From an uncultured Thiomicrospira sp. (GTDB lineage: Bacteria > Pseudomonadota > Gammaproteobacteria > CAKMZV01): a stretch of 64,000 bases of DNA. The notes beneath the pieces were generated by a model. That model saw nothing but the letters and a program-made list of their open reading frames with translations, was not told where the DNA came from and ran no database searches. Shown here piece after piece: positions 3,411 through 60,784 of the stretch. Every line of letters begins with the position of its first letter. The stretch's first letter is position 1. The translations under genes and the position numbers were made by a program. The DNA lies in the NCBI GenBank assembly GCA_965195345.1, contig OZ239628.1:352001-416000 (forward strand), given 5' to 3'.

Positions 3411-3610
3411 GCCTTAAAGCATTAGGGTCAAACGGTATCAAATGATTACTTAGAGCGCTTTAGCGAGAGGAAGTTACTGGAGCGTTTTGCCACACACCAT
3501 ATTCAACATAATACTATTTATTCACAAAATCACCTTCATCGTTGAAAGAATTGGATTACTATGGATTATGTCGTAAAATCTAGGGTTTTAAATTATCAAG
3601 TCAGACATTC

Positions 3611-12477: not shown

Positions 12478-12510
12478 TTGCTAATAGTCTAAGTATTTGC
12501 GCTGACATTG

Positions 12511-13857: not shown

Positions 13858-13900
13858 AGTAAATAAATGTGTTGATAGTGAACTTCAAACTTGGAAAATT

Positions 13901-15268: not shown

Positions 15269-15275
15269 AGCGAGT

Positions 15276-16424
15276 ATGAACAACAATAGCAGTGCTGATT
15301 CCCCTTGGATGGATGAGTCGATTCAGCCTTTTTTGAAAATTCAGAATTTAAGTAAATCATTCGAGAATGCTAAAGCTTTAGATAGTATTTCATTAGAAGT
15401 ATATCGGAAAGAATTTTTTGCTTTGCTGGGACCGTCCGGTTGTGGAAAATCAACTTTGCTAAGAATTCTTGCTGGATTTGAAGCTCCAGATGAAGGTGCT
15501 GTAACGCTTGAAAACGAATCCATTGTCGAAATTCCTGTTTATAAAAGACCAATAAATATGATGTTTCAGTCGTACGCGTTGTTTCCGCATATGACGGTAG
15601 AACAAAACATCGCTTTTGGCTTGAAGCAAGAAAAACTTGACAAATCAGAGATAAAAGAACGTACGGATAAAGCAATTGAGTTAGTTCAGTTAAATCAATT
15701 TGCCCGACGTAAACCCAATCAATTATCTGGAGGGCAACAGCAGAGAGCAGCATTAGCGCGTAGTTTGGTTAAAGGACCGAAATTATTATTGCTGGATGAG
15801 CCTCTTGGTGCTCTTGATAAAAAATTGCGGCAAGAAACTCAGTTTGAGCTGGTTGATTTGCAAGAGAAGTTAGAAATGACTTTCATTATTGTCACGCATG
15901 ACCAAGAAGAAGCAATGACGGTGGCATCGCGCATTGCTGTCATGGATCATGGGAAAGTTGTGCAAGTGGGTACGCCATTAGAAATGTATGAATTCCCTCA
16001 AACACGCTTTGTAGCTCATTTCATCGGTGATGTGAATATTTTTGATTCTGAGGTGACATCGGTGGAGGATGGATGTTGCTTTGTAGCGTGCGCTGATATA
16101 GGAAAAACATTAGGAGTGCAACAAGGACAGCCAGAATCAGCTTTTCATACAGGAGATAAGGTTGGCTTTGCTATTCGACCAGAAAAAATCAGCATCCACA
16201 AATCGAATGGAGAAAATAAGGACTCCAACAGCAGTGTTGAAGGGACGGTTTATGACATTGGTTATTTGGGAGGTTGCTCGGTTTACCATGTTCAGCTTGC
16301 AACTGGAAAAATGATGGTGGCGAGTGTCAACAATAATCTACGACAGGAGTTTATGCCTATTACATGGAACGATAAAGTCATACTAAGCTGGAATGTTACG
16401 TCAGGGCTGTTACTCAAATCATAA
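15276..16424 (+). CDS. potG: Polyamine ABC transporter ATP-binding protein
   Basis: Walker A GPSGCGKST, signature LSGGQQQR, LLLLDEP, TOBE-like tail. The ATG at 15276 follows the spuC stop. Confidence 0.93.
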   Translation: MNNNSSADSPWMDESIQPFLKIQNLSKSFENAKALDSISLEVYRKEFFALLGPSGCGKSTLLRILAGFEAPDEGAVTLENESIVEIPVYKRPINMMFQSYALFPHMTVEQNIAFGLKQEKLDKSEIKERTDKAIELVQLNQFARRKPNQLSGGQQQRAALARSLVKGPKLLLLDEPLGALDKKLRQETQFELVDLQEKLEMTFIIVTHDQEEAMTVASRIAVMDHGKVVQVGTPLEMYEFPQTRFVAHFIGDVNIFDSEVTSVEDGCCFVACADIGKTLGVQQGQPESAFHTGDKVGFAIRPEKISIHKSNGENKDSNSSVEGTVYDIGYLGGCSVYHVQLATGKMMVASVNNNLRQEFMPITWNDKVILSWNVTSGLLLKS

Positions 16425-47934: not shown

Positions 47935-50718
47935 ATGAAATATATTGACTTGACAGACTACGGAACGCCTGTTTCAAAAAATACTACTATGGTCAATTTG
48001 ACTATAGATGGCGTTAATGTTAGGGTTGCAGAAGGGACGAGTTTGATGCGTGCTGCAATCGAAGGGGGAATTCATATCCCTAAACTGTGCGCAACGGATT
48101 CACTTAATCCTTTTGGCTCATGTCGTTTGTGTATGGTTGAAATAGTCGGTCGTCCTAATCCAGTTGCTTCGTGTCATACGAATGTGACTGAAGGGCTAAT
48201 TATTCGCACACAAAACGAACAATTGGCGAAGTGGCGTAAGAATCTTATGGAGTTGTACATATCTGATCATCCTTTAGATTGTTTGACTTGTGCCGCTAAT
48301 GGCGATTGTGAGCTACAGGATATGGCAGGAGTGGTTGGCTTGCGTGATGTGCGTTATCCTAAAGGAGGCATAACGCATTTGGAGCAAGAAAAAGACGAAT
48401 CCAATCCTTATTTCACATTTGACCCAAGCAAGTGTATTTTGTGCTCTCGTTGTGTGCGTGCTTGCGATGAGGTGCAAGGAACATTAGCGTTAACCATAGA
48501 AAAGCGAGGATTTAACTCAAAAGTTTCAGTGGCAAATGTTGACTTTATGGCTTCTGATTGCGTTTCGTGTGGCGCATGTGTTCAAGCCTGTCCAACAGCT
48601 ACGTTGATGGAAAAAAGTGTTATTGCATTCGGTTTGGGTGAGAACAAAACAATTACCACTTGTGCTTATTGCGGAGTAGGTTGTAATTTTGTTGCACACA
48701 CTCAAGGCGAACAAGTGACGCACATGGTGCCTTATAAAGACGGGAAAGCGAACCATGGTCACTCTTGTGTTAAAGGGCGATTTGCTTGGCAATATGCGAC
48801 CCATGAAGAACGAATAACAAAACCTTTAGTCCGTGAGAGTATTCATGATGAATGGAGAGAGGTTAGTTGGGATGAAGCTTTTGAGTTTGCTGCAACAAGG
48901 TTGAAGAATATCCAAGAAAAATACGGTGTTGATTCGATTGGAGGTATTACTTCGTCGAGGTGTACTAATGAGGAAACCTATTTGGTGCAAAAACTCGTAC
49001 GAGCTACTTTTAAAAATAACAATGTTGATACTTGTGCTCGAGTTTGTCATTCACCCACAGGATATGGACTAAAACGTACTTTTGGAGCATCGGCAGGCAC
49101 TCAAAATTTTGACTCAGTACAGCATACTGATTTGATCTTTGTAGTTGGAGCCAACCCTACGGATGCGCATCCAGTGTTTGGATCTCGTATGAAACGTCGT
49201 TTGCGTGAAGGGGCGCAGTTAATAGTGCTTGATCCACGGCAAATAGATTTGGTCAAAAGTCCTCATATTAAAGCGAATGTGCACTTGCCCCTAACTCCAG
49301 GAACAAATGTTGCTGTTCTTAATGCTATCGCTCACACGATCGTTAAGGAAGGACTGCAAGATCAAGATTTTATAAGCAAACGCTGTGATTTAGACACCTT
49401 TAAAGATTGGCTAACCTTTATTCAACATGAAAAAAATGCACCTGAGACGATCGCCTCTCAATCAGGACTGGACGTAAATGACATTAAAAAAGCAGCAAGG
49501 CTGTATGCTAAAGCACCGAATGCTGCGATTTACTATGGGTTGGGAGTTACGGAGCATTCGCAAGGGTCTTCAACAGTAATGGCAATAGCTAATTTGGCAA
49601 TGTTGACAGGGAATATTGGTCGAGAAGGTGTTGGTGTTAACCCATTACGTGGACAAAATAATGTACAGGGCGCATGTGATATGGGTTCTTTCCCTCATGA
49701 GTTGCCCGGTTATCGTCACGTTGGTGATCCTAAAGTACGCGAATTATTCGAATCAGAGTGGGATGTTGAATTGTCCGCTGATCCTGGATTGCGCATTCCT
49801 AATATGTTTGATGCCGCCACTGCTGGTTGGTACAAAGGCATGTATATTCAGGGTGAAGACTTAGTGCAATCTGATCCGAACTCTCATCATGTGATAAAGG
49901 CCTTTGAAAACATGGAGTGCGTTATAGTCCATGATCTGTTTTTGAATGAAACGGCTAAATACGCACATGTTTTTTTTCCAGGAGCTTCCTTTTTGGAAAA
50001 AGATGGAACATTTACTAACGCAGAAAGGCGTGTTAATCGTGTTCGTAAAGTCATGTCACCGTTAGGTGGTATGTCAGAGTGGGAAGTAATCTGTGCTTTA
50101 GCAAAAGCAATGGGGTACTCAATGGAGTACAACCATCCTAGTGAAATCATGGATGAAATTGCGCGAACTACTCCAGGATTTGCTAATGTAAGCTATGACT
50201 TGCTTGATGAGAAAGGAAGTATTCAATGGCCTTGCAATGACGCATCACCAGAAGGGACGCCTATTATGCACCAAGAATATTTTGTGCTTGGTAAAGGACA
50301 TTTTATCAATACTGAATACGTGCCCACAAGTGAAAAAACCAATCGTAAATATCCCTTATTACTTACTACTGGACGAGTATTGCATCACTATAACGTAGGC
50401 ACACAAACGAGGCGCACGGCCAATTCAAAGTGGCAACCAGAAGACATATTAGAAATTCATCCAAGCGATGCGGAGTCAAGAGGTATTGTTGACGATATGC
50501 GCGTTGCAGTCACTTCACGCTCAGGTGAAACTTATTTGCACGTGCGCGTTTCAGAAAAAATGGAACCAGGTGTTGTTTATACAACTTTTCATTTTCCAGA
50601 AAGCAATACCAATGTTATTACTACGGATAATTCAGATTGGGCAACAAACTGTCCCGAGTACAAGGTGACGGCTGTGGAAGTTCGTCCTCATGATCAGGCT
50701 ATTCCTAAAGTTGGGTGA
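47935..50718 (+). CDS. fdsA: NAD-dependent formate dehydrogenase alpha subunit (Mo-bisPGD, Cys-ligated)
   Basis: N-terminal Fe-S motifs, CAYCGVGC, active site DTCARVCHSPT, RGQNNVQG, CPEYKVTAV. Confidence 0.97.
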   Translation: MKYIDLTDYGTPVSKNTTMVNLTIDGVNVRVAEGTSLMRAAIEGGIHIPKLCATDSLNPFGSCRLCMVEIVGRPNPVASCHTNVTEGLIIRTQNEQLAKWRKNLMELYISDHPLDCLTCAANGDCELQDMAGVVGLRDVRYPKGGITHLEQEKDESNPYFTFDPSKCILCSRCVRACDEVQGTLALTIEKRGFNSKVSVANVDFMASDCVSCGACVQACPTATLMEKSVIAFGLGENKTITTCAYCGVGCNFVAHTQGEQVTHMVPYKDGKANHGHSCVKGRFAWQYATHEERITKPLVRESIHDEWREVSWDEAFEFAATRLKNIQEKYGVDSIGGITSSRCTNEETYLVQKLVRATFKNNNVDTCARVCHSPTGYGLKRTFGASAGTQNFDSVQHTDLIFVVGANPTDAHPVFGSRMKRRLREGAQLIVLDPRQIDLVKSPHIKANVHLPLTPGTNVAVLNAIAHTIVKEGLQDQDFISKRCDLDTFKDWLTFIQHEKNAPETIASQSGLDVNDIKKAARLYAKAPNAAIYYGLGVTEHSQGSSTVMAIANLAMLTGNIGREGVGVNPLRGQNNVQGACDMGSFPHELPGYRHVGDPKVRELFESEWDVELSADPGLRIPNMFDAATAGWYKGMYIQGEDLVQSDPNSHHVIKAFENMECVIVHDLFLNETAKYAHVFFPGASFLEKDGTFTNAERRVNRVRKVMSPLGGMSEWEVICALAKAMGYSMEYNHPSEIMDEIARTTPGFANVSYDLLDEKGSIQWPCNDASPEGTPIMHQEYFVLGKGHFINTEYVPTSEKTNRKYPLLLTTGRVLHHYNVGTQTRRTANSKWQPEDILEIHPSDAESRGIVDDMRVAVTSRSGETYLHVRVSEKMEPGVVYTTFHFPESNTNVITTDNSDWATNCPEYKVTAVEVRPHDQAIPKVG

Positions 50719-50745
50719 ATACAGGAAACTAAAAGGTATTATTTC

Positions 50746-50958
50746 ATGAAACAATCACGATTTGACCCCGATCGCATTGTATCGCTCGCTAATCAAATAG
50801 CTGAAAATCAATTTGGTATGAGTGAGACTGAGGCAGTGAAGATGGTGGCGACGCATATTAATGCTTTTTGGAACTCCAGCATGAAACAAGTTTTACATTC
50901 GTTGGACGAAAAAAAACTACACCCATTTTGTGCAAAAGCGCTTGAAGATATTAACTGA
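50746..50958 (+). CDS. fdsD: Formate dehydrogenase delta subunit
   Basis: ANQIA...VATHINAFWNSSM motif; position after fdsA. Confidence 0.9.
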   Translation: MKQSRFDPDRIVSLANQIAENQFGMSETEAVKMVATHINAFWNSSMKQVLHSLDEKKLHPFCAKALEDIN

Positions 50959-51103: not shown

Positions 51104-52333
51104 ATGTTTTTTTCATGTAATAAGATAAAGAAAGATGTTTTTAAATCTTCAAAGATGCTTTTTTTGGGAGCATACTTTGTTATTTTATTGTCATCTGCTT
51201 TCATGACATTACCCGCGAATGCCGACGAACACGAACAGGCTACAGAAACCTCAACAAATACTATTCAGCCAAGAGAACAAGCAAAAAAAGAAAATCCAGA
51301 GGTGCTGCCCTCTCACTTGCCGATTAAGAATATTCAATTCACTCCCTCTAAAAAAGAAAAAATTTTCTTTCATCATAACGATGAAAGAGACGAAGAACTT
51401 AGGGTGATCATATTGCAACAATTATTTGATCCTCTATTATGGGAAAAGGCAAAAGTGAGCGCCATACAGTCAAAAATTGAATCTGCTTATATTGTTTATG
51501 ATGATTCTAAAGGGGAGCGACAACATAGCCCTGATTTTTACGATAGCTTAGAAAGCGCTCTGCTTAAAAAGATGGTTCAAACTACAGATATATCATTCAA
51601 AGGATGTGCTTACTCTTGTGTGCAGAAAAAAACAATCACCATAACACAAAGTCGCTTGATTATTAGTACGAAGAACTTAAATAGACGCATTCGAAAAGAA
51701 ATTGAATCGGGTGAAGTACAGGGCATTTTAAAATGGAGTTTCTTCTCAAATGCAGCTGGCAGTAAAGGAGGAATATCTGTTAGCCTACTCAATGCAAACA
51801 ATAAGATTGTTTGGACCGATACGATTTTTGCAGACATTAATGAGTTAATAGTAGCTGACGAAAACAAAGCGTCAGAAGGTGAAAGCCAATTAGGTATAGC
51901 ATTGATGAGTCAGAGAATTCAGTTTGAAGAAGGAACGGATCCAGTAACAGAATCAAACCAAAATGTTGTGGTGAGTTTTGGTTATAGAGAACGCATTACA
52001 CCGTTCACCAGACTTAAATATTATTTAGGGGGGCGTGTGCTGTATAGCACTGGTTTAGCAAATAACTATTTTGCCATTTCAGCGAGTGCTCGTATAGGTT
52101 ATACCATTTTTAATCTGCCCAAACGCGACGTTGATTTTTTCATAGGATTCGAGCAAGACCTCATATTAGTTCAAGGATTTAATGGCACACTTGCTGTAGA
52201 TTGGCAGCTGAGTGATGCTTTTTATTTGCGAGGGATTTATGAGCTGCCGTTGGATTCAGAACGCACAGATAATTTTGGTCAAGAGTATACCCTTAGTCCG
52301 GGTTTTTTGTTAGAAATGGGGGTTAAACTGTGA
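51104..52333 (+). CDS. Hypothetical secreted protein: alpha/beta periplasmic domain plus C-terminal outer-membrane beta-barrel
   Basis: Signal-peptide cleavage site ...LPANA|DE; alternating amphipathic strands in the C-terminal ~160 aa ending LLEMGVKL; GTGA overlap with the next gene. The start may be the ATG at 51155. Confidence 0.7.
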   Translation: MFFSCNKIKKDVFKSSKMLFLGAYFVILLSSAFMTLPANADEHEQATETSTNTIQPREQAKKENPEVLPSHLPIKNIQFTPSKKEKIFFHHNDERDEELRVIILQQLFDPLLWEKAKVSAIQSKIESAYIVYDDSKGERQHSPDFYDSLESALLKKMVQTTDISFKGCAYSCVQKKTITITQSRLIISTKNLNRRIRKEIESGEVQGILKWSFFSNAAGSKGGISVSLLNANNKIVWTDTIFADINELIVADENKASEGESQLGIALMSQRIQFEEGTDPVTESNQNVVVSFGYRERITPFTRLKYYLGGRVLYSTGLANNYFAISASARIGYTIFNLPKRDVDFFIGFEQDLILVQGFNGTLAVDWQLSDAFYLRGIYELPLDSERTDNFGQEYTLSPGFLLEMGVKL

Positions 52334-52899
52334 ACGGGCTTAAAATATTATTTATCATCTCTGCAGTGATTTTTTTGTCAGGCTGCAGTTCAACAGAAGA
52401 GTTACAAACTTTGGATGCGGGCAGAGCAATCAAAGAGGGAGACGGTAAGGAAAATCTACCCTCGTCATTAATTGTTGAAAATGGCGTTATTTTTTTTAGA
52501 AAAGAAAGTGGTGGTGAAAAAATCGAATTTATTTTTAATATTGGTGAAAATGAAAACATCGAGTACGAGATAGAATTTGCTCCCCCTGAGAAAGAAAAGA
52601 GCGATCATCTTCCTGCCCAAAATAGTACCTCTGTAAGTGGCGAGTCTAAAAAGCTTGCGGATCGATTATTCCTATCTGCACAAGGCTATTTTTTAGAAGG
52701 AAATTATCGTCGAGCTTTGGTTGAGGTTAATCGAGCGCTACGAGAAGACATGAAGTCTGGACTTCTTTGGGCTTTAAAGGGTTCCATACACTATAAGCTT
52801 AATGAATTTGGATTGGCACGCAATGCATGGAGTAAGTCGCAGGAATTAGACAAAGATATTACAGGCGTTCGAGAAATGTTATTAAAAATAGGGACGTAA
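52330..52899 (+). CDS. TPR-repeat lipoprotein
   Basis: Lipobox LSGC with +2 Ser; TPR-like AQGYFLEGNYRRALVEVNRAL and LWALKGSIHYKLNEFGLARNAWSKSQELD. Confidence 0.8.
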   Translation: MNGLKILFIISAVIFLSGCSSTEELQTLDAGRAIKEGDGKENLPSSLIVENGVIFFRKESGGEKIEFIFNIGENENIEYEIEFAPPEKEKSDHLPAQNSTSVSGESKKLADRLFLSAQGYFLEGNYRRALVEVNRALREDMKSGLLWALKGSIHYKLNEFGLARNAWSKSQELDKDITGVREMLLKIGT

Positions 52900-52927
52900 T
52901 TAAGAATTAATTTGTGAGTATGAAACC

Positions 52928-55111
52928 ATGAAAAGTTTTTTTGTAAAAATCATAGCAAATGTAGTCACTATTTTTGTGATTGCCGTTACGGGGGTACATG
53001 CACAAGAGATTGAACGAGCAGGGCAAGTAGATGCCATAAAGCAGAGTGTTTTTGAGCGGGATTTGGAAAATAATATTAGCAGTGCGCTCAGGTTACAGCT
53101 CGGTAGCATTCCTTTTTTGGTTCAAGTGAGTGCTGAATTGCGCTCGATAAAAACATACGCGATTGATACTGTCTCCATATATCAGCCGAGTTCTGTTGAA
53201 GCGCCTTCTCTTGAAAGTAAAAAAACAATTGTGAGACAACAGCTGCAAGAAGTTGATGCTGGTAGAACGAATCAAAACATTGATCCTGCTGACGATGGAG
53301 GCCAAGGTATTTCAAATGCTTTGCCAGGAGCCCCAATTCTTTTGACGAATAGTGACGATGGATCTGAGCAAAATCAGCCGAGAAGAAGTCAACCTATAAC
53401 TGAGGTCATTCAATCAACTGAGCCTATCAGTGAAGCGTCAGAAAGTCAACCGAGAAGTGTTGGTCGATTTGTGAATACCACCCGTGAAACGTTCATTGAA
53501 AGTCATGTGTTAATTGACAGAATTGACGTCAAGCTATGGCTTCCATCTGATTTGGAACCTAGTAGAATTCGTTTTCTCAAACACTTGGTTTCTGAAAAAG
53601 CAAGAATTAATTTAATAAGGGGCGATCAGTTTACAACTATTTTAACAAATTTTCCAGAAACTGAAAAAAAGGAAGATACCCTAACAACTAACCAGAATAG
53701 CTCAACTGAGTCTATAAATATTGATAATATTGGTCGGAGAATAGGATTAGATAGAGTAGTAAGTGAGCTGAGTCAAAACAATTGGTTACCTTGGGCGCTT
53801 GCTGGGTTACTCTTTTTATGGTTATTGTTTTTGCTTTTCCGCAAAAAAAGAACCGCGCATCACCAACCGCCGATCGCAACGTACCATCACAGCGATGTTC
53901 CATTTAACCCTCCATCATTAACGAACATCAACCCTCCTGAATCCGCATCTCTTGAAGATAAACAACAAGATCACGAACATAAACAGCGATTGAAAATTCT
54001 TAATGAAGACATAGTGAGTAATATCATGCTGCATGAAGGGTTGTTGCTGAATGCGCTAAATAACCCTAACCTTGCAATAGAAAAAGTACGATTTACGGCT
54101 TGGTTGATTAAATTGCTTGGCACAGCCGTGGTTGCAAAGTATGCATATGATCAGCTTAATGAAAGCGAATTAAAAAACGCGAATGCGTTGCAAGAAGTTA
54201 TTGAACAAAGCACATTGATAGAACAATGTGAATGGGCAGCAAAGGTGCATAGAAGCTTACGCGATAGTGAGTCGCTTTCTAATAAAAATATTTCCCAACC
54301 TTTTGATTTCTTAAATGAAATGAATGATCAGAAATTGAAACGCTTGCTAAATGAAGAGCATGTGCAGGCAAAAGCACTGATACTTTCTCAAATTGATCAA
54401 CGACGCTCGGCAGCAATCCTTGCTATGTTTTCTGCTGAGGAACAAGCAAGTATTGCCATAGCAATGGGGAAACTTACGACACTTCCAGTATCTTCATTTC
54501 ATGACATAGCTAATCAATTAGCTCGTAAGGCTCAAAGCATTCCAGAAGTAAATGAGCTTAACATTGATGGAACGGAAGCGCTAGTGCAGATGATAGAGTC
54601 CATGGATTTGGCGAATGGAACAGCGTTCCTGAATGAATTGAGAAAACAAAATCCTGATCAATATTATCGCATTAAGAAATTGTATATGGGCTTTGAGGAT
54701 ATTCCAAAAATTCCGAAGGCTATATTGAAAAACTTTTTGCGTGAAATTGAACGAGAAGAGTTGGTTACGGCACTGTACGATGAGGAAGATGCTTTTAGAG
54801 AACAGTTACTCAGTGCGCTTCCTGATCGAGCAAAGGCATTAGTTCAGCAGTTATTGAGTGAAATACAAACACCAACTGCAGCAAAGATTATGCAATCGAA
54901 AAAAATGATTAGCACCAAAGCAAGGCAGTTATTGCGAGCTAAAGTATTTGAATTACCAACAGATGAAGAGACCTTCACAGCGTCTTCAACATCTGAAGCA
55001 GGGCTACAAGAAGAGTCTATAGTTCCCTCTATAGAGGTTGAGTCAAGGCTTTCGGAAGAGTCAAACACAGGGTCAAGAAGCTCCTCAAACCTTAATAACT
55101 TAGAAAAATGA
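52928..55111 (+). CDS. FliF(RBM3)-TM-FliG fusion protein
   Basis: Signal peptide VHA|Q; FliF RBM3-like FERDLENNISSAL...VQVSAEL and IDRIDVKL...LKHLVSEKARINLIRGDQF; one TM helix; FliG-M PFDFL...EHVQAKALILS; FliG-C YMGFED...LREIE...ALPDRA. Confidence 0.85.
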   Translation: MKSFFVKIIANVVTIFVIAVTGVHAQEIERAGQVDAIKQSVFERDLENNISSALRLQLGSIPFLVQVSAELRSIKTYAIDTVSIYQPSSVEAPSLESKKTIVRQQLQEVDAGRTNQNIDPADDGGQGISNALPGAPILLTNSDDGSEQNQPRRSQPITEVIQSTEPISEASESQPRSVGRFVNTTRETFIESHVLIDRIDVKLWLPSDLEPSRIRFLKHLVSEKARINLIRGDQFTTILTNFPETEKKEDTLTTNQNSSTESINIDNIGRRIGLDRVVSELSQNNWLPWALAGLLFLWLLFLLFRKKRTAHHQPPIATYHHSDVPFNPPSLTNINPPESASLEDKQQDHEHKQRLKILNEDIVSNIMLHEGLLLNALNNPNLAIEKVRFTAWLIKLLGTAVVAKYAYDQLNESELKNANALQEVIEQSTLIEQCEWAAKVHRSLRDSESLSNKNISQPFDFLNEMNDQKLKRLLNEEHVQAKALILSQIDQRRSAAILAMFSAEEQASIAIAMGKLTTLPVSSFHDIANQLARKAQSIPEVNELNIDGTEALVQMIESMDLANGTAFLNELRKQNPDQYYRIKKLYMGFEDIPKIPKAILKNFLREIEREELVTALYDEEDAFREQLLSALPDRAKALVQQLLSEIQTPTAAKIMQSKKMISTKARQLLRAKVFELPTDEETFTASSTSEAGLQEESIVPSIEVESRLSEESNTGSRSSSNLNNLEK

Positions 55112-55887
55112 AAACACTAATTAGTCGATTAATAGCAATGGCTTTGGTAGGGTACGCAGCTTACAGCATTATTGTTTTTCCAGAGCATACAGCTCTTTTT
55201 ACGCATGCAGAATCAGTGATTTTGGTATTGGGTGGTACATTCGCAGCAAGCCTGATGAGCTTTAATATTGAGACAATATTGAAGGCATTTTTAAGCTTTT
55301 TTAAAGGTCTTATTTATGCCTCAGACAATCAGTCAAAGATCAGAGAAATAAAAGAAATCATTACAATTGCAGAACGCGTTAATGAAACAAACGGATTCGG
55401 ATGTATTGATGATATGTTAGAACAAAAAAAAAAATATTCAGATTTTGTGCGATTAGGATTAGAGCTGATTTCTGCGGGTTACAGCGAAGTTGGACTTAGA
55501 GTACAGCTAACAAATTTTGCAGATGAACTAGATGAAGAAGAGCGTTTGATGGAAGACGTTTGGTTTCAATTTGCAAACTATGCTCCAGCTTTGGGAATGG
55601 TTGGAACAGTTATAGGGTTGATTCTTATGTTGGATAATCTTGATGTCAATAGTTTAAATATTGGAGCTGGACTTTCATTGGCACTGTTGACTACTTTGTA
55701 CGGTGTTTGTATAGCGAACTTTATTTTCAAACCAACTGCTCGGTTTTTAGCTGAAGAACGATTGAAAAAATCCAGAAATTTAGCACTTTATTTAGAAGCA
55801 ATGCTAATGGTACAAAAAAAAACAAGTCCAATTTTAATGAAAGATTACTTAAATAGTAGCTTGCCTATTAAATTGCAATTAAAGTAA
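55108..55887 (+). CDS. MotA/PomA-like stator subunit
   Basis: SVILVLGGT, YAPALGMVGTVIGLILML, ALLTTLYG...ANFIFKP; ATGA overlap with the FliF-FliG gene. Confidence 0.92.
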   Translation: MKTLISRLIAMALVGYAAYSIIVFPEHTALFTHAESVILVLGGTFAASLMSFNIETILKAFLSFFKGLIYASDNQSKIREIKEIITIAERVNETNGFGCIDDMLEQKKKYSDFVRLGLELISAGYSEVGLRVQLTNFADELDEEERLMEDVWFQFANYAPALGMVGTVIGLILMLDNLDVNSLNIGAGLSLALLTTLYGVCIANFIFKPTARFLAEERLKKSRNLALYLEAMLMVQKKTSPILMKDYLNSSLPIKLQLK

Positions 55888-55903
55888 TGTTAAGAATAAG
55901 CCT

Positions 55904-55932
55904 AAAATCAACTTCTGTGAAGATTGATTTTT
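55904..55932 (+). terminator. Hairpin with U-tail between the motA-like and motB-like genes
   Basis: AAAATCAA-CTTC-TGT-GAAG-A-TTGATTTT(T). Confidence 0.4.
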
Positions 55933-55953
55933 CGTAACTAAGGATACGGCTTC

Positions 55954-56673
55954 ATGAATTCAGTTTTACGCAAAAAAAAGTCTATCAATAGAACAGATAA
56001 CCTTTGGTTAATAACCTATTCAGATGTTGTGACGTTACTGTTGGTTTTTTTTGTGCTAATCATCGCTTTTTCAGTCGTTGATCAATCTAAATTTGAAGTG
56101 ATTGCTGAAGCCATAAAAGCAAATAAGTTCGATGGGAAAAAGACGCTTCCTTTTCAAAAATTTGAACAAGAATTGCAAAAAATTATCGAAAAAAATGATT
56201 TAGAAGAAAAGGTTGTTGTAAATAAACAACCTCTAGGCGTTAGTATTGAACTTTCTGGTGAAAGTCTATTCCAATCTGGAGAAGCTATTTTGAATGCAAC
56301 GGGTAGCCTCGCAATAAAACAATTAGCGAAGGCTATAAAAAACATTGAATATCCTAACTATCAAGTAGAGATTGAAGGACATACCGATGATGTGCCAATA
56401 AATAATGAGAAATACTCTTCCAATTGGGAATTGTCTGTCTTTCGCGCCATTGATGTGCTTAAGCTGTTAACAGAGCAGGGAATACCCAATGATAAATTCA
56501 AAATAGCTGGTTACGGAGAAACAAAACCTAAATATTCAAATGAAACGGCTGATGGTTTACCTAATGTCGCTAACAGAGCTAAAAACAGACGAATAGAGAT
56601 TAATGTTTTTCGTAAGGAGCGGCGTTATAGGGAATCGTCAACAAAAGAGGAAAATCAAAACACAGAAAAGTAG
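55954..56673 (+). CDS. MotB/PomB-like stator subunit with OmpA-type peptidoglycan-binding domain
   Basis: TM WLITYSDVVTLLLVFFV with the conserved Asp; LFQSGEA, IEGHTDDVP, NWELSVFRA, GYGETKP, NRRIEI. Confidence 0.95.
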   Translation: MNSVLRKKKSINRTDNLWLITYSDVVTLLLVFFVLIIAFSVVDQSKFEVIAEAIKANKFDGKKTLPFQKFEQELQKIIEKNDLEEKVVVNKQPLGVSIELSGESLFQSGEAILNATGSLAIKQLAKAIKNIEYPNYQVEIEGHTDDVPINNEKYSSNWELSVFRAIDVLKLLTEQGIPNDKFKIAGYGETKPKYSNETADGLPNVANRAKNRRIEINVFRKERRYRESSTKEENQNTEK

Positions 56674-56733
56674 TTTTTATAATATTTTTTGATTTTTGGC
56701 ACGCATTGAGACTATTTTTAAGCAGGTTCTAAA

Positions 56734-58149
56734 ATGCAAAGAAAGGGTATGGGATTCATATTTAACCGAATAAATGCTCTTACTTTTTCTAGTATGAGAA
56801 AAAAAAATCCAATTCTACTGGTCTGCTCTTTTGTGGTGTTTCTCTCCTTCCCTATAAAAGCAACGAGCAATTTTCAACCTTCCCAATTGAGAACTTTGTT
56901 TAATCCTGCCGCTGAGAATCCATCAGCAGCAGTTATCTACAGTTACTTATTCAATGATAGTGATATCGGGTTGCAAGTATATGGAGAAGCGCAAGGACTA
57001 GTAGAAAACACCATAGATGAGAATCAACTTCTAATGGAGTTGAACGGTATTATAAATTCTAATATTGGCGTTAATTCTATTAATCAATTTGAAACACAAA
57101 TAAATAATTTCCTTAGAACTACTCAACCTATTCTTCGTGGTAATGCAAACGCAATCCTCGCTTTTCGAAAAGGATCAAATACAAAAAAAACTGCTGTCAC
57201 TCTTAGTTATGATGATAGTCTCTTGTACTATCAACAATTGCGATTTATCAATGGCGTTGATGTTGATGTGCCGGCAGTAACAGCCTTAATTGCGGGCAAC
57301 ACGACCATTGATTCTGCAGATTTTTTGAACGCTATTGATACTGATGTGGGCATTAATAATACATTGGCACGTATCAGAACGTTCAGCTTAGGATATAGCC
57401 ATCGCTACACGATTAATCCAATAATTAAATTCAGCTATGGTGTGCGTTTTAAAGCACAATCGGCATCTATTTCTTCAAACTTGGTGGACTTTCGAACAGT
57501 TATATCCACGACCAATGAGGTAGTTCAGTTAGAAAGTGCTGATATATTTGGAAATTTTGACACAGCAAACGAGCATATATATGGTAATGTTGATTTAGCT
57601 CTAACATTGCATGGAAGACAATATTTTATAAGCATATACTCACTGGATACCATACCGCAAAGGTTAGCATTACCAAGTTTTTCCGATACATGCGAGTCTG
57701 TAAATGATTGTGCTATATCAGCACTGTATCCAAATGGGAATGAGTTTTTTTATATCGACCCTAAAGTGCGTTTTGAATACAGCTATCTGTCACGACGCAA
57801 GCAATTTCGCTTTAGCTTTTTGTACGATATACTCCCTTGGAGAGATGGAAGTACTGCCGAGCGCCAACTGCTAACTATCCATACTGAAATTGCGACGACT
57901 AAGCGAAACACTAATAGACCCTATTGGGGACATCCCTCCCCTTCGATAAGGCTATCTGCTTTTATAGATGATGCTTCTTCTTTCGTGAATGATACTCTTA
58001 TTCAGACAGGGTTCAGTGCATGGTTTATAGATTTAAACTTCACATTTGGCTTTAGAAAACCAGGTATATTAGTCTCTAGACCATCTAGAATTGAGAACAG
58101 CAGGACACTTCTACGCGGCATTCAGTTGGGAGTTAACGTTGATTTTTAA
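56734..58149 (+). CDS. Putative outer-membrane beta-barrel protein, TraF_2-like
   Basis: Signal peptide ending PIKA; LFNPAA near the mature N-terminus; amphipathic strands such as TFSLGYSHR and FSYGVRFK; C-terminal GVNVDF (BAM-type terminal Phe). Confidence 0.55.
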   Translation: MQRKGMGFIFNRINALTFSSMRKKNPILLVCSFVVFLSFPIKATSNFQPSQLRTLFNPAAENPSAAVIYSYLFNDSDIGLQVYGEAQGLVENTIDENQLLMELNGIINSNIGVNSINQFETQINNFLRTTQPILRGNANAILAFRKGSNTKKTAVTLSYDDSLLYYQQLRFINGVDVDVPAVTALIAGNTTIDSADFLNAIDTDVGINNTLARIRTFSLGYSHRYTINPIIKFSYGVRFKAQSASISSNLVDFRTVISTTNEVVQLESADIFGNFDTANEHIYGNVDLALTLHGRQYFISIYSLDTIPQRLALPSFSDTCESVNDCAISALYPNGNEFFYIDPKVRFEYSYLSRRKQFRFSFLYDILPWRDGSTAERQLLTIHTEIATTKRNTNRPYWGHPSPSIRLSAFIDDASSFVNDTLIQTGFSAWFIDLNFTFGFRKPGILVSRPSRIENSRTLLRGIQLGVNVDF

Positions 58150-58163
58150 AAGCGATATTCTTA

Positions 58164-58751
58164 TTATTTTACAGAATCGATTAATTCCATTAAATTGCCT
58201 TTATGCATTCTAATTTCATCTTCAGATAAGCCGACTAATTCGTGAGGGAATACTAGCCAGTCGGTTGTTTTATGCACGTGAAAATCGGGTTCAATAACTG
58301 TTTGATTATTATTTGGTTTGTAATAAGCAGTGGCAATCTTTATTTTGGGAGTGTTTTTTCGGCAATGAAGTTTGATGTCATTTACCACCTGCTGGATACT
58401 CAAACCAGTATCAAAAACATCGTCAACGATGAGTAAAGAATCGGTATCATTAACGTTTTCAATAATATAGTGTAGGCCATGAACGCGGATATTACGTTCA
58501 CGCTCAGCAATACCAGTATAAGAAGAAGTACGTATGGCGATGTGATCGGTTTTAATGCCAAGATATTGTAGCAACTCCTGTACGGCAATACCGACGGGTG
58601 TTCCTCCACGCCATATTCCGACAATGTAGTTTGGGACGAAGTTGCTTTTGTGGATTTCAATGGCTAGTTGGTAAGAAACATCAAGCAATTCTTGGCTGCT
58701 TAAGTATACTTTAGGGACGGTTTCCTTGTTGTCTGGGTGGTTAGTTGACAT
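58164..58751 (-). CDS. Type I phosphoribosyltransferase (purine PRT-like)
   Basis: GIWRGG and PRPP-binding LIVDDVFDTG, WLVFPHE. The ATG at 58751 has a GGAG RBS. Confidence 0.88.
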   Translation of the reverse strand: MSTNHPDNKETVPKVYLSSQELLDVSYQLAIEIHKSNFVPNYIVGIWRGGTPVGIAVQELLQYLGIKTDHIAIRTSSYTGIAERERNIRVHGLHYIIENVNDTDSLLIVDDVFDTGLSIQQVVNDIKLHCRKNTPKIKIATAYYKPNNNQTVIEPDFHVHKTTDWLVFPHELVGLSEDEIRMHKGNLMELIDSVK

Positions 58752-58752
58752 A

Positions 58753-59364
58753 TTACTCCATGTTTTTTTTGTGCTGATTGTAAACAATAAGGCTATGAAA
58801 AATAATTTGGGCAAGTAAAGAAGTTATGATTTGTTGAGTAAAAGCAGAGATGATGCAAAATATAAGTCCACCGATTGCCGCACTCAACCATTCTTTGCTT
58901 GGGCAGAAACGCCAAAGAGACCAAGCTAAAGTACTGACTATGATGACTTTCCAAGAGGGCAGTTCATAGAACCAATTAAAGATGCTTGCACGAAATAGTA
59001 ATTCCTCACCAAGAGGAATTAAGGCAACAAATACAAAAATTGCGATAGGGTTTTTACCGCCACAAAAAACAGGTAACTTGAAAAAGTGAAATGAAAGCAT
59101 GAACAAAACCGCACCCAAGAAAATACCCAGCAGTAATGCTAATGGCATGCTCGAAGTGAATAAGTAATCTTCAAAGTCAAATACAAAGTCTTCGCGTGTG
59201 AAAAACCATGCAAAGTAAAACCCAATCAAAATGACGAAGCGCAAGCGCATGATAGAAACGGATAGAAGATCGCTTTTTTTACTAATTTTAGCCAACAAAA
59301 ATATTGCTAATATAAGCATTCCAGGTGTAAAAAGCCAAATTAGATTAAGAATTGTTTCGGTCAT
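58753..59364 (-). CDS. CPBP (CAAX protease/Abi) family intramembrane protein, divergent
   Basis: Multi-TM protein with GEELLFR motif 1; the later His motifs are altered. Confidence 0.7.
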   Translation of the reverse strand: MTETILNLIWLFTPGMLILAIFLLAKISKKSDLLSVSIMRLRFVILIGFYFAWFFTREDFVFDFEDYLFTSSMPLALLLGIFLGAVLFMLSFHFFKLPVFCGGKNPIAIFVFVALIPLGEELLFRASIFNWFYELPSWKVIIVSTLAWSLWRFCPSKEWLSAAIGGLIFCIISAFTQQIITSLLAQIIFHSLIVYNQHKKNME

Positions 59365-59497: not shown

Positions 59498-60784
59498 TTA
59501 CAAATAACGCGCTAACATGACAAATGGGCCGTTGATTTCGGGAAGTGGTAATTTTATAGTGACTCCGCCACCTTTTGCTTCCTCAATTTTTTGTCCCTTG
59601 TCCGTTTCAATGTGCTCTACATGAATATCAAAATTACCTTGCGGTTGGACTACTTCAAGGCGATCTCCAGTCTTTATTTTGTTTTTGGTGAGTACAGTTG
59701 CAATACCATTGTTGTAATCTGTAACTTCAGCACAAAATTGTTGCTGACGAGAGGTTGAATGTGAATCAACATAATTCTGATAGTCAGCGTTATGATGTCG
59801 CTGAAAAAAACCATCGGTATAACCTCTATTAGATAAGTTTTCTAAGTCGGAGATAAGGTTAGGGTCGAATGGCTTGTTTGAACAAGCATCATCGATAGCT
59901 TGACGGTAAGATTGGGCAGTACGGGCTACGTAGTAATGTGATTTAGTGCGTCCTTCAATTTTCAAACAATGCACACCAAGTTTGGCTAGTGCATGGACAT
60001 GTTCGATTGCGCGCAAATCTTTGGAGTTCATGATGTATGTGCCATGATCATCTTCTTCAATTGGAAGGAATTCACCAGGACGGTTGCTCTCTTCCAATAA
60101 CCACGTTTTCTGTGGAGGTGGACTAATTTCTTTGATGATGGTGCCTTTTTGTTCATCATTGACGCCTTCATGGACCTGATAGTTCCAGCGACAAGCATTA
60201 GTACAAGTGCCTTGATTTGGATCGCGATGGTTAAAATAACCTGATAAAAGGCACCGTCCTGAATAGGCAATACATAGGGCACCGTGGACAAAAACTTCCA
60301 GTTCAACTCCAGGACAGTGATCTTTAATAGATTCAATTTCGGTTAGTGAAAGTTCTCGAGAAAGAATGACACGTTCGATGTTTGCAACTTCATGCCAAAA
60401 GCGTACGCTTGCCCAGTTGACGGCATTGGCCTGTACTGAAAGGTGAATTGGAATGTCGGGCCAATTTTCTCTTGTAAGTGCTATCAATCCAGGGTCGGCC
60501 ATGATTAGAGCATCTGGATTACAGTCAATGATTTCCTCTATATCTTTAACAAACGTTTTAAGTTTAGAGTTGTGAGGTAAAAGATTAACGGTGCAGTAAA
60601 ATTTCTTGCCTTGAGCATGCACTTCTTCAATGCCCTTTGCAAGATTAGGAATAGTAAATTCATTATTGCGGGCACGCAGTGAATACCGAGGAGGCCCAGC
60701 GTATACTGCATCTGCTCCAAAGGCCAATGCAAAGCGCATGTTCTTTAAAGTTCCAGCGGGTGAGAGGAGTTCAGGTTTTTGCAT
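59498..60784 (-). CDS. trhP: tRNA 5-hydroxyuridine modification protein, U32 peptidase family (YegQ)
   Basis: PELLSPAG, GADAVYAG, HGALCIAYSGRC, CTNACRW, HGTYIMNSKDL, KIEGRTKS. Confidence 0.93.
   Translation of the reverse strand: MQKPELLSPAGTLKNMRFALAFGADAVYAGPPRYSLRARNNEFTIPNLAKGIEEVHAQGKKFYCTVNLLPHNSKLKTFVKDIEEIIDCNPDALIMADPGLIALTRENWPDIPIHLSVQANAVNWASVRFWHEVANIERVILSRELSLTEIESIKDHCPGVELEVFVHGALCIAYSGRCLLSGYFNHRDPNQGTCTNACRWNYQVHEGVNDEQKGTIIKEISPPPQKTWLLEESNRPGEFLPIEEDDHGTYIMNSKDLRAIEHVHALAKLGVHCLKIEGRTKSHYYVARTAQSYRQAIDDACSNKPFDPNLISDLENLSNRGYTDGFFQRHHNADYQNYVDSHSTSRQQQFCAEVTDYNNGIATVLTKNKIKTGDRLEVVQPQGNFDIHVEHIETDKGQKIEEAKGGGVTIKLPLPEINGPFVMLARYL

Follow-up and report, generated by a model that had tools for sequence, protein, structure and literature searches.

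A one-chain FliF-FliG protein in a putative non-flagellar rotor-stator gene cluster

The closest described relatives of the system analysed here are the flagellar MS-ring and C-ring of Salmonella and Vibrio, together with their MotAB or PomAB stators. In the MS-ring protein FliF, the ring-building motif RBM3 forms the S-ring, and RBM1 and RBM2 hold the export gate; in FliG, EHPQR is the FliM-binding motif. Engineered FliF-FliG fusions support motility in Salmonella and Vibrio. Some of these elements have counterparts elsewhere: the N domain of MgtE has a FliG-like fold, the N-terminal domain of FlgT is TolB_N-like, and the TPR protein CpoB belongs to the tol-pal operon. To our knowledge, none of the TolQR, ExbBD, AglRQS and GldLM systems uses FliG or an MS-ring-like ring.

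Here we describe a gene cluster which appears to combine a flagellar-type rotor and stator with outer-membrane (OM) proteins. It lies in a stretch of 64 kb (the window), within a genome assembled as one contig of 1.92 Mb that is 99.7% (99.71%) complete.

A six-gene cluster and its one-chain FliF-FliG protein

The cluster (51104-58149) comprises six tightly packed, co-directional genes (Table 1), and all ORFs lie where an earlier note on this DNA had placed them. Both couplings named there are present: a GTGA overlap (52330-52333) sets the start of gene 2 on the stop of gene 1, and an ATGA overlap (55108-55111) sets the start of gene 4 on the stop of gene 3. The proposed boundaries, fdsD and a convergent PRTase gene, were likewise recovered.

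Table 1. Features of the cluster, of the gene 3 product and of the cluster boundaries (nucleotide positions in the window)
Feature	Position	Strand	Description	Basis
Gene 1	51104..52333	+	409 aa; OM protein, TolB_N/LpoB-like domain and 8-stranded barrel	ORF, AF2 model, structure matches
Gene 2	52330..52899	+	189 aa; TPR lipoprotein	TPR_2 and LPAM_1 matches, lipobox
Gene 3	52928..55111	+	727 aa; single-chain FliF(RBM3+collar)-TM-FliG(N/M/C), putative rotor subunit	Pfam, AF2, structure matches
Gene 3, periplasmic FliF RBM3 and beta-collar-like domain	53024..53656	+	aa 33-243	structure superposition
Gene 3, LPG motif	53321-53329		aa 132-134, in a disordered insert (aa 90-177) of the RBM3/collar domain	family alignment
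Gene 3, transmembrane helix, then basic residues	53786..53857	+	aa 287-310	helix in AF2 model; hydrophobic block kept in family alignment
Gene 3, cytoplasmic FliG N, M and C domains	54080..54955	+	aa 385-676, including torque-helix region	structure superposition
Gene 4	55108..55887	+	259 aa; PomA-like MotA stator subunit	MotA_ExbB, NCBIfam PomA
Gene 5	55954..56673	+	239 aa; MotB, plug, TM helix with conserved Asp, OmpA-like peptidoglycan-binding domain	Pfam
Gene 6	56734..58149	+	471 aa; candidate TraF_2/PorP_SprF-like OM barrel	language-model features
FdsD (PF11390)	50746-50958		one cluster boundary
Pribosyltran gene	58164-58814	convergent	other cluster boundary

Gene 3 had been read as a FliF-FliG fusion. 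Its C-terminal half matches Pfam FliG_M (E 6e-12) and FliG_C (E 1e-16), and YscJ_FliF finds no match in its presumed FliF half. In an AF2 model (pLDDT 72.5), residues 33-243 superpose on residues 231-438 of Salmonella FliF, which span RBM3 and collar (7cg7_A; Z 14.4, rmsd 2.3 Å over 99 residues), and match the Vibrio S-ring almost equally well (8z5v_A; Z 14.0). Residues 385-684 correspond to Salmonella FliG 5-331 (8umx_B; Z 16.9), and residues 588-675 to FliG_C of a MotAB-FliG complex (8ucs_H; Z 15.0, rmsd 1.4 over 88). The N-terminal part of a fusion-family HMM also weakly matches FliF ORFs adjoining fliG in three genomes (E 4e-5 to 9e-4). By this model and its Foldseek matches, gene 3 encodes one chain in which a FliF RBM3/collar domain and a single transmembrane helix are joined to FliG in full (N, M and C); the fusion is thereby supported, but its FliF portion is partial, as RBM1 and RBM2 are cleanly missing across the family, with a signal peptide in their place. 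L132, P133 and G134 are nearly invariant in the family alignment, and R231, G232 and D233 are conserved. Of the EHPQR motif the E alone is retained, and a weak MgtE_N match (E 8.9e-4, below cut-off) overlaps FliG_M.

No match for FHIPEP (FlhA), YscJ_FliF (the FliF RBM1/2 family), Flagellin_N, Flg_bb_rod or FliMN_C occurs in the whole genome, and its single FliG_C match is gene 3. None of the families searched for FliM/N, export gate, rod, hook or filament was found. The lack of flagellar genes previously described for the window thus extends to the entire genome for every family searched. The genome also has a TolQ-like gene.

Stator subunits and envelope partners

Genes 4 and 5 had been assigned to MotA and to MotB with an OmpA domain, and the profile searches agree. 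Gene 4 matches MotA_ExbB (E 2.4e-17), and its best NCBIfam model is PomA (E 3e-33; 115 bits, under the 341-bit cut-off), against only E 0.002-0.007 for the TolQ and ExbB models; all NCBIfam equivalog scores are far under their cut-offs. Gene 5 matches MotB_plug (E 2.3e-15) and OmpA (E 3.4e-19). The equivalent of D32 is kept in all 33 aligned family MotBs, and those of P173 and P222 in all 36 aligned MotAs, including gene 4. Judged from their sequences, the two genes specify a PomAB-like stator of the flagellar type, with plug and OmpA domains, in which the ion-path residues are intact.

At the rotor-stator interface, the R90 and E98 positions are R and E in 33 of the 36 MotAs. The R281 position is R or K in 34/34 fused FliG domains aligned from MotAB-linked loci (19/20 fusion members in a separate alignment), and the D289 position is E or D in all 34 but three, namely those of this window and of the compared genomes G004 and G071. 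Where no plug-type MotB was found (G375), the R281 position is T. The predicted MotA-FliG charge pairs are accordingly kept in most family members and in this window for one of the two: the E98-R281 pair persists as D and R, and the R90-D289 pair is lost on both sides together, here and in G004. Since the acidic pair D288/D289 of the torque helix is replaced by Q and L in gene 3, R90 of MotA by E in gene 4, and K264 and R297 are not conserved, the interface in this window is weaker than, or different from, the flagellar one.

Gene 1, earlier described as a secreted protein with a C-terminal barrel, carries a signal peptide, a periplasmic TolB_N/LpoB-like domain and a modelled 8-stranded OM beta-barrel (aa 257-409), which resembles NspA (Z 16.2, rmsd 2.5 over 139) and the OmpA TM domain (Z 16.0) and bears out that description; the AF2 model reaches a pLDDT of only 65. 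Its N-terminal domain matches LpoB (4q6l; E 7.7e-4, TMt 0.55) and TolB (E 1e-5). The protein is homologous to one of about 355 aa at the same operon position in 41 loci (hhalign 53%, E 1.4e-4), and in the family alignment C168, C172, W211, W237 and G406 are invariant, with both cysteines in the TolB_N/LpoB-like domain. The family also shows a weak FlgT_M match (E 0.0087, below cut-off). Gene 2, correctly recognized as a TPR lipoprotein, matches TPR_2 (E 2.5e-6) and LPAM_1. In this OM-anchored protein a small beta domain is combined with two TPR repeats at the C terminus, and the lipobox Cys19 is invariant in an alignment of 17 homologues.

Pfam searches gave no match for genes 1 and 6, nor did NCBIfam for gene 6. 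The gene 6 product has an internal Met at position 21, ahead of a stretch that resembles a signal peptide, and ends in Phe. The TraF-like barrel suggested for it remains a candidate that rests on language-model (atlas) features only (score 0.97 to TraF_2/PorP_SprF clusters), and with its sole orthologue found in G004 (34% identity) gene 6 is considered a lineage-specific accessory outside the conserved core.

Family distribution and competing explanations

The fusion is one member of a large and unnamed family, in which 118 of the 150 best 50%-identity cluster representatives have at least 540 aa. In a FastTree of FliG regions, eight flagellar FliGs group with ten short representatives (support 0.90), and the 132 long forms fall outside their clade. 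Among 14 fusion groups clustered at 60% identity, a TPR lipoprotein is found within four genes of the fusion in 13, MotA and MotB in 10, and the gene 1 family barrel protein in 9, and these five proteins form the conserved core. The expected co-occurrence with MotAB and OM genes therefore holds for most groups, but in 4/14 no MotAB adjoins the fusion. The TPR lipoprotein is likewise close in 47 of the 49 loci with room for it; a single subfamily served as bait in retrieving the metagenome loci, which are close relatives of one another, and per-locus counts overstate their independence.

Divergent genomes and metagenome contigs carry the cassette as well. Its distribution within the GTDB family is patchy, as G004 alone among G001-G004 possesses it; there, all six genes are intact at 34-57% identity, without the decay that would have spoken against the original proposal. 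G071 harbours the cassette, and other contigs encode a FliF and an FlhA of its own; FlhA was not found in G001-G004, G033, G130, G301 and G375. MotB_plug was not found genome-wide in the carriers G001, G002 and G375, nor any relative of the gene 4 MotA in G001 and G002; therefore some family members work without this stator, or are decaying. The genome with the window encodes a second, C-terminally truncated paralogue, whose positional counterpart in G001 is fragmented, and genomes of this lineage are reduced (1.8-2.1 Mb). Sel1 proteins, of which one has a SPOR septal-peptidoglycan domain, lie beside family members in G071 and G375 and beside this paralogue, and a glucosaminidase gene is located two genes downstream of the G130 fusion.

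We consider it fairly probable that the cluster encodes a rotor-stator machine which is driven by ions, is not part of a flagellum and has its scaffold in the periplasm and OM; there are no experimental, imaging or expression data. Genome content, structure, recurrence and coexistence with canonical FliF and FlhA in G071 all support the stand-alone cluster that the earlier note had envisaged. By homology only, fusion subunits would assemble like FliF RBM3 to give a ring in the membrane and so present a ring of FliG_C domains. Peptidoglycan-anchored MotA5B2-type units would pass H+ or Na+ and push FliG_C via the conserved E98-R281-type charge pair, and in most family members also via the R90-D289-type pair, so that the ring may turn relative to the wall. 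A periplasmic and OM scaffold like MotX/FlgT or the spirochaete collar could be built from the TPR lipoprotein and the barrel protein. It would hold the stators in place or take up the output, perhaps by way of the long, disordered loop of the fusion's collar and the conserved LPG(L)P motif in that loop. The locus would then represent a bare flagellar rotary engine, rotor ring and ion-driven stator without shaft or propeller, in a bacterium without flagellum genes; joined to OM proteins, such an engine probably drives an envelope component whose identity is unknown. Our best guess, by inference, is that a component of the envelope or OM, not a filament, is moved or remodelled. No rotated load has been identified, RBM1/2 are absent, and no rod is available to transmit torque, all of which count against a rotor.

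The same components might instead form a static, envelope-spanning scaffold, where the ring is an inner-membrane platform that recruits and gates MotAB without spinning freely and relays proton-motive force to both the TPR lipoprotein and the OM barrel. Such a scaffold would serve to maintain the envelope, remodel peptidoglycan or divide the cell, in a role comparable to that of Tol-Pal with CpoB and TolB. This energy transducer is unlikely, yet it would accommodate the TolB_N/LpoB-like domain of gene 1, an obligatory TPR partner as in the tol-pal operon, the Sel1, SPOR and glucosaminidase neighbours, the members lacking MotAB and the want of a rod or other load. Its weaknesses are a stator of the flagellar rather than the Tol/Exb type, a TolQ-like gene already present in the genome, and cytoplasmic charge pairs kept in most of the family, which only make sense if MotA acts on FliG_C.

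More doubtful still is a device without mechanical output, in which FliG-like cytoplasmic domains sense a cue and gate MotAB, or the ring reports envelope stress. The FliM-binding motif is lost, so the FliG middle domain would be free for another ligand, and both the faint MgtE_N similarity and the unidentified load are compatible with such a role; however, the full FliG and the S-ring domain are retained, plug and OmpA domains imply anchored, torque-bearing stators, and the operon has no conserved regulator or signalling domain. Least credible, and already largely refuted, is a flagellar remnant or a set of dispersed flagellar parts with no function of its own. Genome reduction, the patchy occurrence, the truncated and fragmented copies and the partial loss of torque-helix charges in gene 3 would agree with decay, but other flagellar families searched are missing from the complete genome, none of the six ORFs is disrupted in this genome or in the divergent G004, architecture and operon recur in 14 divergent groups with non-flagellar partners, RBM1/2 gave way to a signal peptide family-wide, and the long forms are separate from flagellar FliG. 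We also disfavour a remnant because G071 carries the cassette on top of its own FliF and FlhA.

Comparison with known systems

A description of this FliF-FliG/MotAB/OM system was not found in the literature searched. The putative rotor-stator machine shares with its flagellar counterpart the FliF RBM3/collar and FliG N/M/C folds, a FliG_C as in the MotAB-FliG complex, a plug and OmpA MotB with the channel Asp, a MotA with both conserved prolines and the E98-R281-type pair. It differs by its one-chain FliF and FliG, the absent RBM1/RBM2, the lost EHPQR and D288/D289 residues, the lack of FliM/N, export gate, rod, hook and filament families in the genome, the low NCBIfam scores, and its operon partners, an OM barrel protein and a TPR lipoprotein. 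According to the accessible parts of the sources, a covalent FliF-FliG chain still assembles rings in Vibrio (10.1101/2023.02.06.527414; PMC11481574). Engineered fusions are laboratory constructs with full-length FliF in a complete flagellum, whereas the present family is natural and lacks RBM1/2 as well as a flagellum.

The available section of one source (Table 2, PMC13277936) states that stator assembly needs periplasmic TPR/Sel1-type proteins and lists MotX and FlcA as TPR proteins. The Vibrio T-ring and H-ring (MotX, MotY, FlgT) and the spirochaete collar (FlcA) thus resemble the cluster in their TPR protein and in the FlgT_M and TolB_N-like features of the gene 1 family; unlike them, this cluster encodes a lipoprotein and a barrel integral to the OM, without data on rotor or stator binding, and MotX, MotY and FlgT show no significant sequence match to cluster proteins. 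SctJ/PrgK of injectisomes and SpoIIIAG of sporulation share the ring-building-motif fold with an inserted beta-hairpin, but their matches to gene 3 (SpoIIIAG 5wc3, Z 8.7; Shigella T3SS inner-membrane ring, Z 8.1) are much weaker than that of FliF RBM3 (Z 14), and their rings have neither FliG nor stator. TolQR with TolA, TolB, Pal and CpoB, ExbBD-TonB, AglRQS-Glt and GldLM similarly show genetic linkage of an inner-membrane, ion-driven motor to a TPR protein, a TolB_N-like domain and OM barrels, without a filament. As far as the consulted part of the source extends, their B subunits (TolQR, ExbBD, AglRQS, GldLM) lack the plug and OmpA architecture (PMC12505986), whereas the stator models that fit the present cluster are the flagellar ones.

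Layout of the cluster and flagellar gene content of the genome

The six co-directional open reading frames that an earlier note had read from this DNA lie exactly where it placed them, and the start/stop overlaps described between genes 1 and 2 (GTGA) and between genes 3 and 4 (ATGA) are both real in the sequence, the remaining intergenic gaps measuring 28, 66 and 60 bases. The boundaries named at the time hold as well: a gene for FdsD (PF11390, E 2e-12), located 3' of the gene for the formate dehydrogenase alpha subunit, precedes the cluster, and a convergent phosphoribosyltransferase gene follows it. The GC content ranges from 0.34 to 0.40 over the cluster, compared with 0.398 for the genome. 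A promoter and terminator scan remained at chance level (26 promoter-like signals versus 27.6 expected; 6 terminator-like signals versus 5.2 expected).

Positions of the cluster genes, their neighbours and related loci
Feature	Sequence	Position	Strand	Product length
Gene 1, predicted outer membrane (OM) barrel protein	window	51104-52333	+	409 aa
Gene 2, TPR lipoprotein	window	52330-52899	+	189 aa
Gene 3, putative FliF-FliG fusion	window	52928-55111	+	727 aa
Gene 4, MotA	window	55108-55887	+	259 aa
Gene 5, MotB	window	55954-56673	+	239 aa
Gene 6, TraF_2/PorP-like barrel candidate	window	56734-58149	+	471 aa
NAD-dependent formate dehydrogenase alpha subunit and FdsD genes, directly upstream of cluster	window	47935-50958		927 aa; 70 aa
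Rce1-like CAAX protease gene, downstream of cluster	window	58753-59364	-	
Peptidase U32 gene, downstream of cluster	window	59498-60784	-	
Third MotA/ExbB-type system	G000:C1 (L004)	865151-868390		354, 175 and 317+ aa
Second, diverged fusion paralogue	G000:C1 (L017:7915-9843)	1257915-1259843	-	642 aa
Sel1-repeat protein	L017	9862-11340		
Sel1-repeat protein with SPOR domain	L022 (G071)	12974-14545		
Sel1-repeat protein	L025 (G375)	6331-7827		
Protein between TPR and fusion genes	L025 (G375)	2660-3952		430 aa
Glucosaminidase gene	L024 (G130)	6453-7196		
TPR-fusion-MotA-MotB followed by common block	L021 (G033)	11828-15371		
TPR-fusion-MotA-MotB followed by common block	L075	11627-15359		

The host genome (G000) is a single contig of 1,920,693 bp with 39.8% GC and a completeness of 99.71%. 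Its ParE is 72% identical to the closest records, which stem from metagenome-assembled genomes (MAGs) of uncultured Gammaproteobacteria, and no named genus exceeds 62% identity. On these grounds, an affiliation with the Legionellales/Coxiellales was dropped, and the host is taken to be an unclassified gammaproteobacterium with a small genome. Family searches of the whole genome yielded no matches to FHIPEP/FlhA, YscJ_FliF, Flagellin_N, Flg_bb_rod or FliMN_C, while the same searches gave matches in four flagellated genomes used as a positive control. For these families, the lack of flagellar genes noted in the window extends to the entire genome, and a complete flagellum elsewhere that draws on these parts, the case that would have refuted the earlier reading, is not seen. 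Membership in a bacterial flagellum is unmet, as families of the export apparatus, the rod/hook and the filament were not found in this genome. Gene 3 is the only FliG_C match of the whole-genome family search, and the MotA_ExbB matches number three: a TolQ-like gene, gene 4 and, near 866 kb, the weak match of a third system. This third system, an uncharacterised Tol/Exb-like motor, adjoins lepA and comprises a MotA/ExbB-type gene (C-terminal MotA_ExbB, E 1.4e-5) followed by two small single-TM proteins.

Domain architecture of the putative rotor, stator and envelope proteins

Gene 3 contains FliG_M (E 6e-12) and FliG_C (E 1e-16) in residues 468-671, and no Pfam family covers its N-terminal half. 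When an AlphaFold2 model of the protein (pLDDT 72.5 overall, 80-96 in the structured parts) is set against PDB structures, its residues 33-243 superpose on residues 231-438 of Salmonella FliF (Z 14.4, rmsd 2.3 Å over 99 residues), which comprise RBM3 and the beta-collar, the S-ring-forming part of FliF. The same region matches FliF by Foldseek (E 3e-4, TMt 0.50-0.55), and the model also resembles the Vibrio S-ring (Z 14.0). Farther along the chain, residues 385-684 align with residues 5-331 of full-length Salmonella FliG (Z 16.9), and residues 588-675 with FliG_C of the MotAB-FliG cryo-EM complex (Z 15.0, rmsd 1.4 Å over 88 residues). Independently, in three flagellated relatives the N-terminal part of the family HMM weakly matches the FliF ORFs that adjoin fliG (E 4e-5 to 9e-4). 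Because superpositions and HMM matches agree, gene 3 is, as far as a predicted structure and sequence comparison can tell, a natural FliF(RBM3/collar)-TM-FliG(N/M/C) fusion. The one-chain FliF-FliG rotor proposed initially is upheld for these domains and fails for FliF RBM1 and RBM2: the corresponding Pfam family, YscJ_FliF, matches neither this protein nor any other in the genome, and the mature N-terminus begins at the RBM3-like domain. In FliF, RBM1 and RBM2 surround the export gate.

An alignment of 20 full-length fusion members (A1) reveals a common architecture. A signal peptide with an AxA-like end is followed by a helix and a long strand, a variable low-complexity insert harbouring a nearly invariant L-P-G motif, and then a returning long strand, a helix and a strand terminating in an almost invariant R-G-D. 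The C-terminal half consists of one TM helix, a variable linker, a helical domain, FliG_M and FliG_C. Within the FliM-binding EHPQR motif only the Glu is kept (19/20 members), and H, P, Q and R160 (E. coli numbering, here and below) are not conserved, a loss that fits a genome without FliM/N. Among the torque-helix charges, R281 is R or K in 19 of the 20 members, K264 and R297 are not conserved, and the D288/D289 equivalents are Q and L in the window's gene 3.

Gene 4 matches MotA_ExbB in Pfam, with PomA as its best NCBIfam model (E 3e-33; 115.1 bits, cut-off 341), and gene 5 combines MotB_plug and OmpA domains, scoring 165.8 bits against MotD (cut-off 283). Gene 3 reaches 75.1 bits with the FliG equivalog TIGR00207 (cut-off 226.7). 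Since all NCBIfam equivalog scores fall far below the cut-offs, the genes are diverged relatives rather than orthologues of the named flagellar proteins. Genes 4 and 5 do have the following features of a flagellar-type stator: MotA has four TM helices and equivalents of P173 and P222, and MotB has a plug and an OmpA-like domain besides its channel Asp.

Residues were mapped onto MotA, MotB and FliG from an annotated E. coli K-12 record. Throughout the family, the channel Asp (D32) is kept in 33/33 aligned MotBs and P173 and P222 in 36/36 MotAs, 33 of which also have R at position 90 and E at position 98. In a MotAB survey, the pairs R90-D289 and E98-R281 are described as rotor-stator contacts (PMC12505986). 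In the alignment of fused FliG domains from MotAB-linked loci, all 34 carry R or K at position 281, and all except those of the window, G004 (its closest orthologue) and G071 carry E or D at position 289. The window's MotA has E for R90 and D for E98. In the window and in G004 alike, the R90-D289 pair is changed on both sides (MotA E or T; FliG L), with the E98(D)-R281(R) pair retained. Position 281 is T in G375, a genome without any MotB_plug match. The sample is small and its members are related; even so, the residue pattern is what a working MotA-FliG_C interface would predict.

Of the partner proteins, genes 1 and 6 have no Pfam or NCBIfam match. The AlphaFold2 model of gene 1 (pLDDT 65) predicts a C-terminal eight-stranded barrel at residues 257-409, resembling NspA (Z 16.2) and the OmpA TM domain (Z 16.0), and an N-terminal alpha/beta domain similar to LpoB and TolB_N, in agreement with leads from the Atlas. 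Gene 1 is homologous to a protein of about 355 aa at the same operon position elsewhere (hhalign 53%, E 1.4e-4), which itself matches FlgT_M below threshold, and two Cys and two Trp are invariant in the gene 1 family. Gene 2 encodes a TPR_2 protein with a lipoprotein signal; its family always has the lipobox Cys, together with a small beta domain and two TPRs. A complex prediction for the periplasmic part of the fusion (aa 25-250) and the TPR lipoprotein (aa 20-189) scored 0.01, the mark being 0.32, and is evidence neither way. For gene 6, the likeness to TraF_2/PorP_SprF barrels rests on language-model features only (Atlas 0.97 to clusters that are 100% TraF_2), no Pfam family matches at E up to 1, and an orthologue was found in G004 only.

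Distribution and gene neighbourhoods of the fusion family

An exhaustive profile-free search returned 2227 relatives of the fusion at E <= 1e-3, and 118 of the best 150 cluster representatives among them comprise at least 540 aa. A word-index protein search found only two relatives of the fusion and one of gene 1, and a single fusion protein used as query against genome contigs retrieved no related loci. Look-ups of ten family representatives gave unnamed or "hypothetical protein" entries from MAGs. At a threshold of E <= 1e-40, full-length members occur in G000, G001, G002, G004 (all of one GTDB family) and G033 among 41 relatives, and in 7/400 genomes of a class-wide sample, the window's genome included. 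None was detected in 400 other genomes of a phylum-wide sample or in 301 genomes from the phylum of G783, where all eight matches were ordinary FliG proteins of 291-354 aa. In a FastTree phylogeny of FliG regions, eight flagellar FliGs and ten short representatives form a clade (support 0.90) apart from 132 long forms. The sample was picked by similarity to the query and the tree midpoint-rooted, and no direction of descent is claimed.

A scan of metagenome contigs, baited with one subfamily (sub-alignment A3), added 49 loci. The ORFs of all 57 loci were clustered, a neighbourhood being defined as four genes on either side of the fusion and fusion groups at 60% identity. The dominant gene order is gene-1-family, TPR, fusion, MotA, MotB, hereafter the cassette. 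Where the locus leaves room, the fusion is accompanied by the TPR lipoprotein in 47/49 loci (13/14 fusion groups), the gene 1 family in 32/38 (9/14), MotA in 35/41 (10/14) and MotB in 31/37 (10/14). The anticipated co-occurrence of these genes is borne out in most of the 14 groups. Decay in relatives, which would have spoken against a functional system, is not apparent in G004, where all six genes are intact at 34-57% identity.

Some members deviate from this order. G001 and G002 harbour the fusion alone, with no MotB_plug match and no relative of the window's MotA genome-wide, and in G375 the locus consists of TPR, an extra periplasmic-domain paralogue, fusion and a Sel1 protein. As these members lack any plug-type stator, the family is not uniformly stator-dependent. 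G130 has TPR and fusion, with MotAB unlinked elsewhere in the genome, and in two loci (L069 and L073) the fusion is found with a TPR protein of 560 aa and a member of the gene 1 family. FlhA was not found in G001-G004, G033, G130, G301 or G375. G071, from a flagellated lineage of 4.4 Mb, possesses the cassette and, on other contigs, both FlhA and a canonical FliF of 596 aa.

Several observations concern the surroundings of family members. The extra G375 protein falls into the ORF cluster of the fusion family and shares its periplasmic-domain motif at the N-terminus, but lacks FliG domains. Outside the window, G000 encodes a second, diverged paralogue with FliG_M and without FliG_C, located between parE and a 492-aa Sel1-repeat protein; counterparts beside parE are split into three fragments in G001 and contain one internal TGA in G002. 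Sel1-repeat proteins repeatedly adjoin family members, the one of G071 bearing a C-terminal SPOR (septal peptidoglycan-binding) domain, and in G130 the second gene downstream of the fusion codes for a glucosaminidase. The divergent carriers L021 and L075 have a common block directly after TPR-fusion-MotA-MotB (ORF clusters 31, 32 and 33), which starts with a MoxR AAA+ gene, followed in G033 by genes for DUF58, a vWA protein and a pilin-like protein. This block may reflect a functional link or a conserved neighbourhood.

Proposed mechanism, rival explanations and relation to the flagellar motor

The evidence best supports a rotor-stator pair as the mechanism; that a ring forms, that it rotates and what the OM proteins do is inference throughout. 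Fusion subunits would assemble into a ring, as inferred from FliF (a ~33-34-mer), and expose FliG_C to MotAB units that are anchored in the peptidoglycan and conduct ions. The TolB_N-like barrel protein and the TPR lipoprotein might do here what MotX/FlgT, or the TPR collar protein of spirochaetes, do at flagellar motors, or else they might themselves be what is moved. A possible tether is the long, disordered loop of the collar, in which the LPG motif is conserved.

The main rival to a non-flagellar, ion-driven rotor-stator machine is an envelope energiser akin to Tol-Pal. It is supported by the repeated occurrence of Sel1 proteins (one with SPOR) and by the glucosaminidase next to family members, which point tentatively to a role in peptidoglycan or division. 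Membership of the stator genes in the Tol/Exb-type motors is unmet: gene 4 matches TolQ and ExbB at E 0.0067 and 0.0019, compared with 3e-33 for PomA, and gene 5 matches ExbD at E 0.79 and carries MotB_plug, unlike the plug-less TolR/ExbD type. A flagellar remnant, or dispersed parts of a flagellum, is contradicted by the cassette being intact, conserved and present in multiple lineages, by operon partners that are not flagellar genes, by its coexistence with full FliF and FlhA, and by the clean domain re-architecture of the fusion. We rate the cassette as a flagellar motor core in a non-flagellar machine.

With an S-ring domain, FliG and a stator only, and no flagellar export or filament genes found, the cassette would show that the torque-generating core is usable alone. 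Its five proteins offer a far simpler object for work on rotor-stator coupling and ring assembly, and ideas on the order in which the flagellum evolved could be tested on it. It probably also serves an envelope function not known before, in uncultured Gammaproteobacteria with small genomes and in marine lineages. For annotation, a FliG or MotAB match does not imply motility.

To our knowledge, FliG and the MS-ring have until now been treated as flagellum-specific. Searches of the full-text literature, excluding paper supplements, which could hold gene lists, turned up no FliF-FliG or FliG-MotAB system that is both natural and non-flagellar; the FliF-FliG literature found covers engineered fusions and flagellar work only. 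Stators with plug and OmpA domains are a flagellar speciality, according to the MotAB survey (PMC12505986). We hold it possible, while leaning slightly the other way, that the cassette is the first FliG-based rotary motor outside the flagellum: a self-contained S-ring/FliG rotor with PomAB-like stators, tied to OM proteins and widespread in uncultured bacteria. Should rotation and an independent output be demonstrated, it would be fit to be called a new kind of machine. As its long forms are separate from flagellar FliG in the tree, the family could represent an ancient sister group of the flagellar motor and not a flagellum reduced to its core. If that reading holds, the cassette would be an extant rotor-stator module that functions in the absence of type III export, with a direct bearing on the evolutionary assembly of the flagellum.
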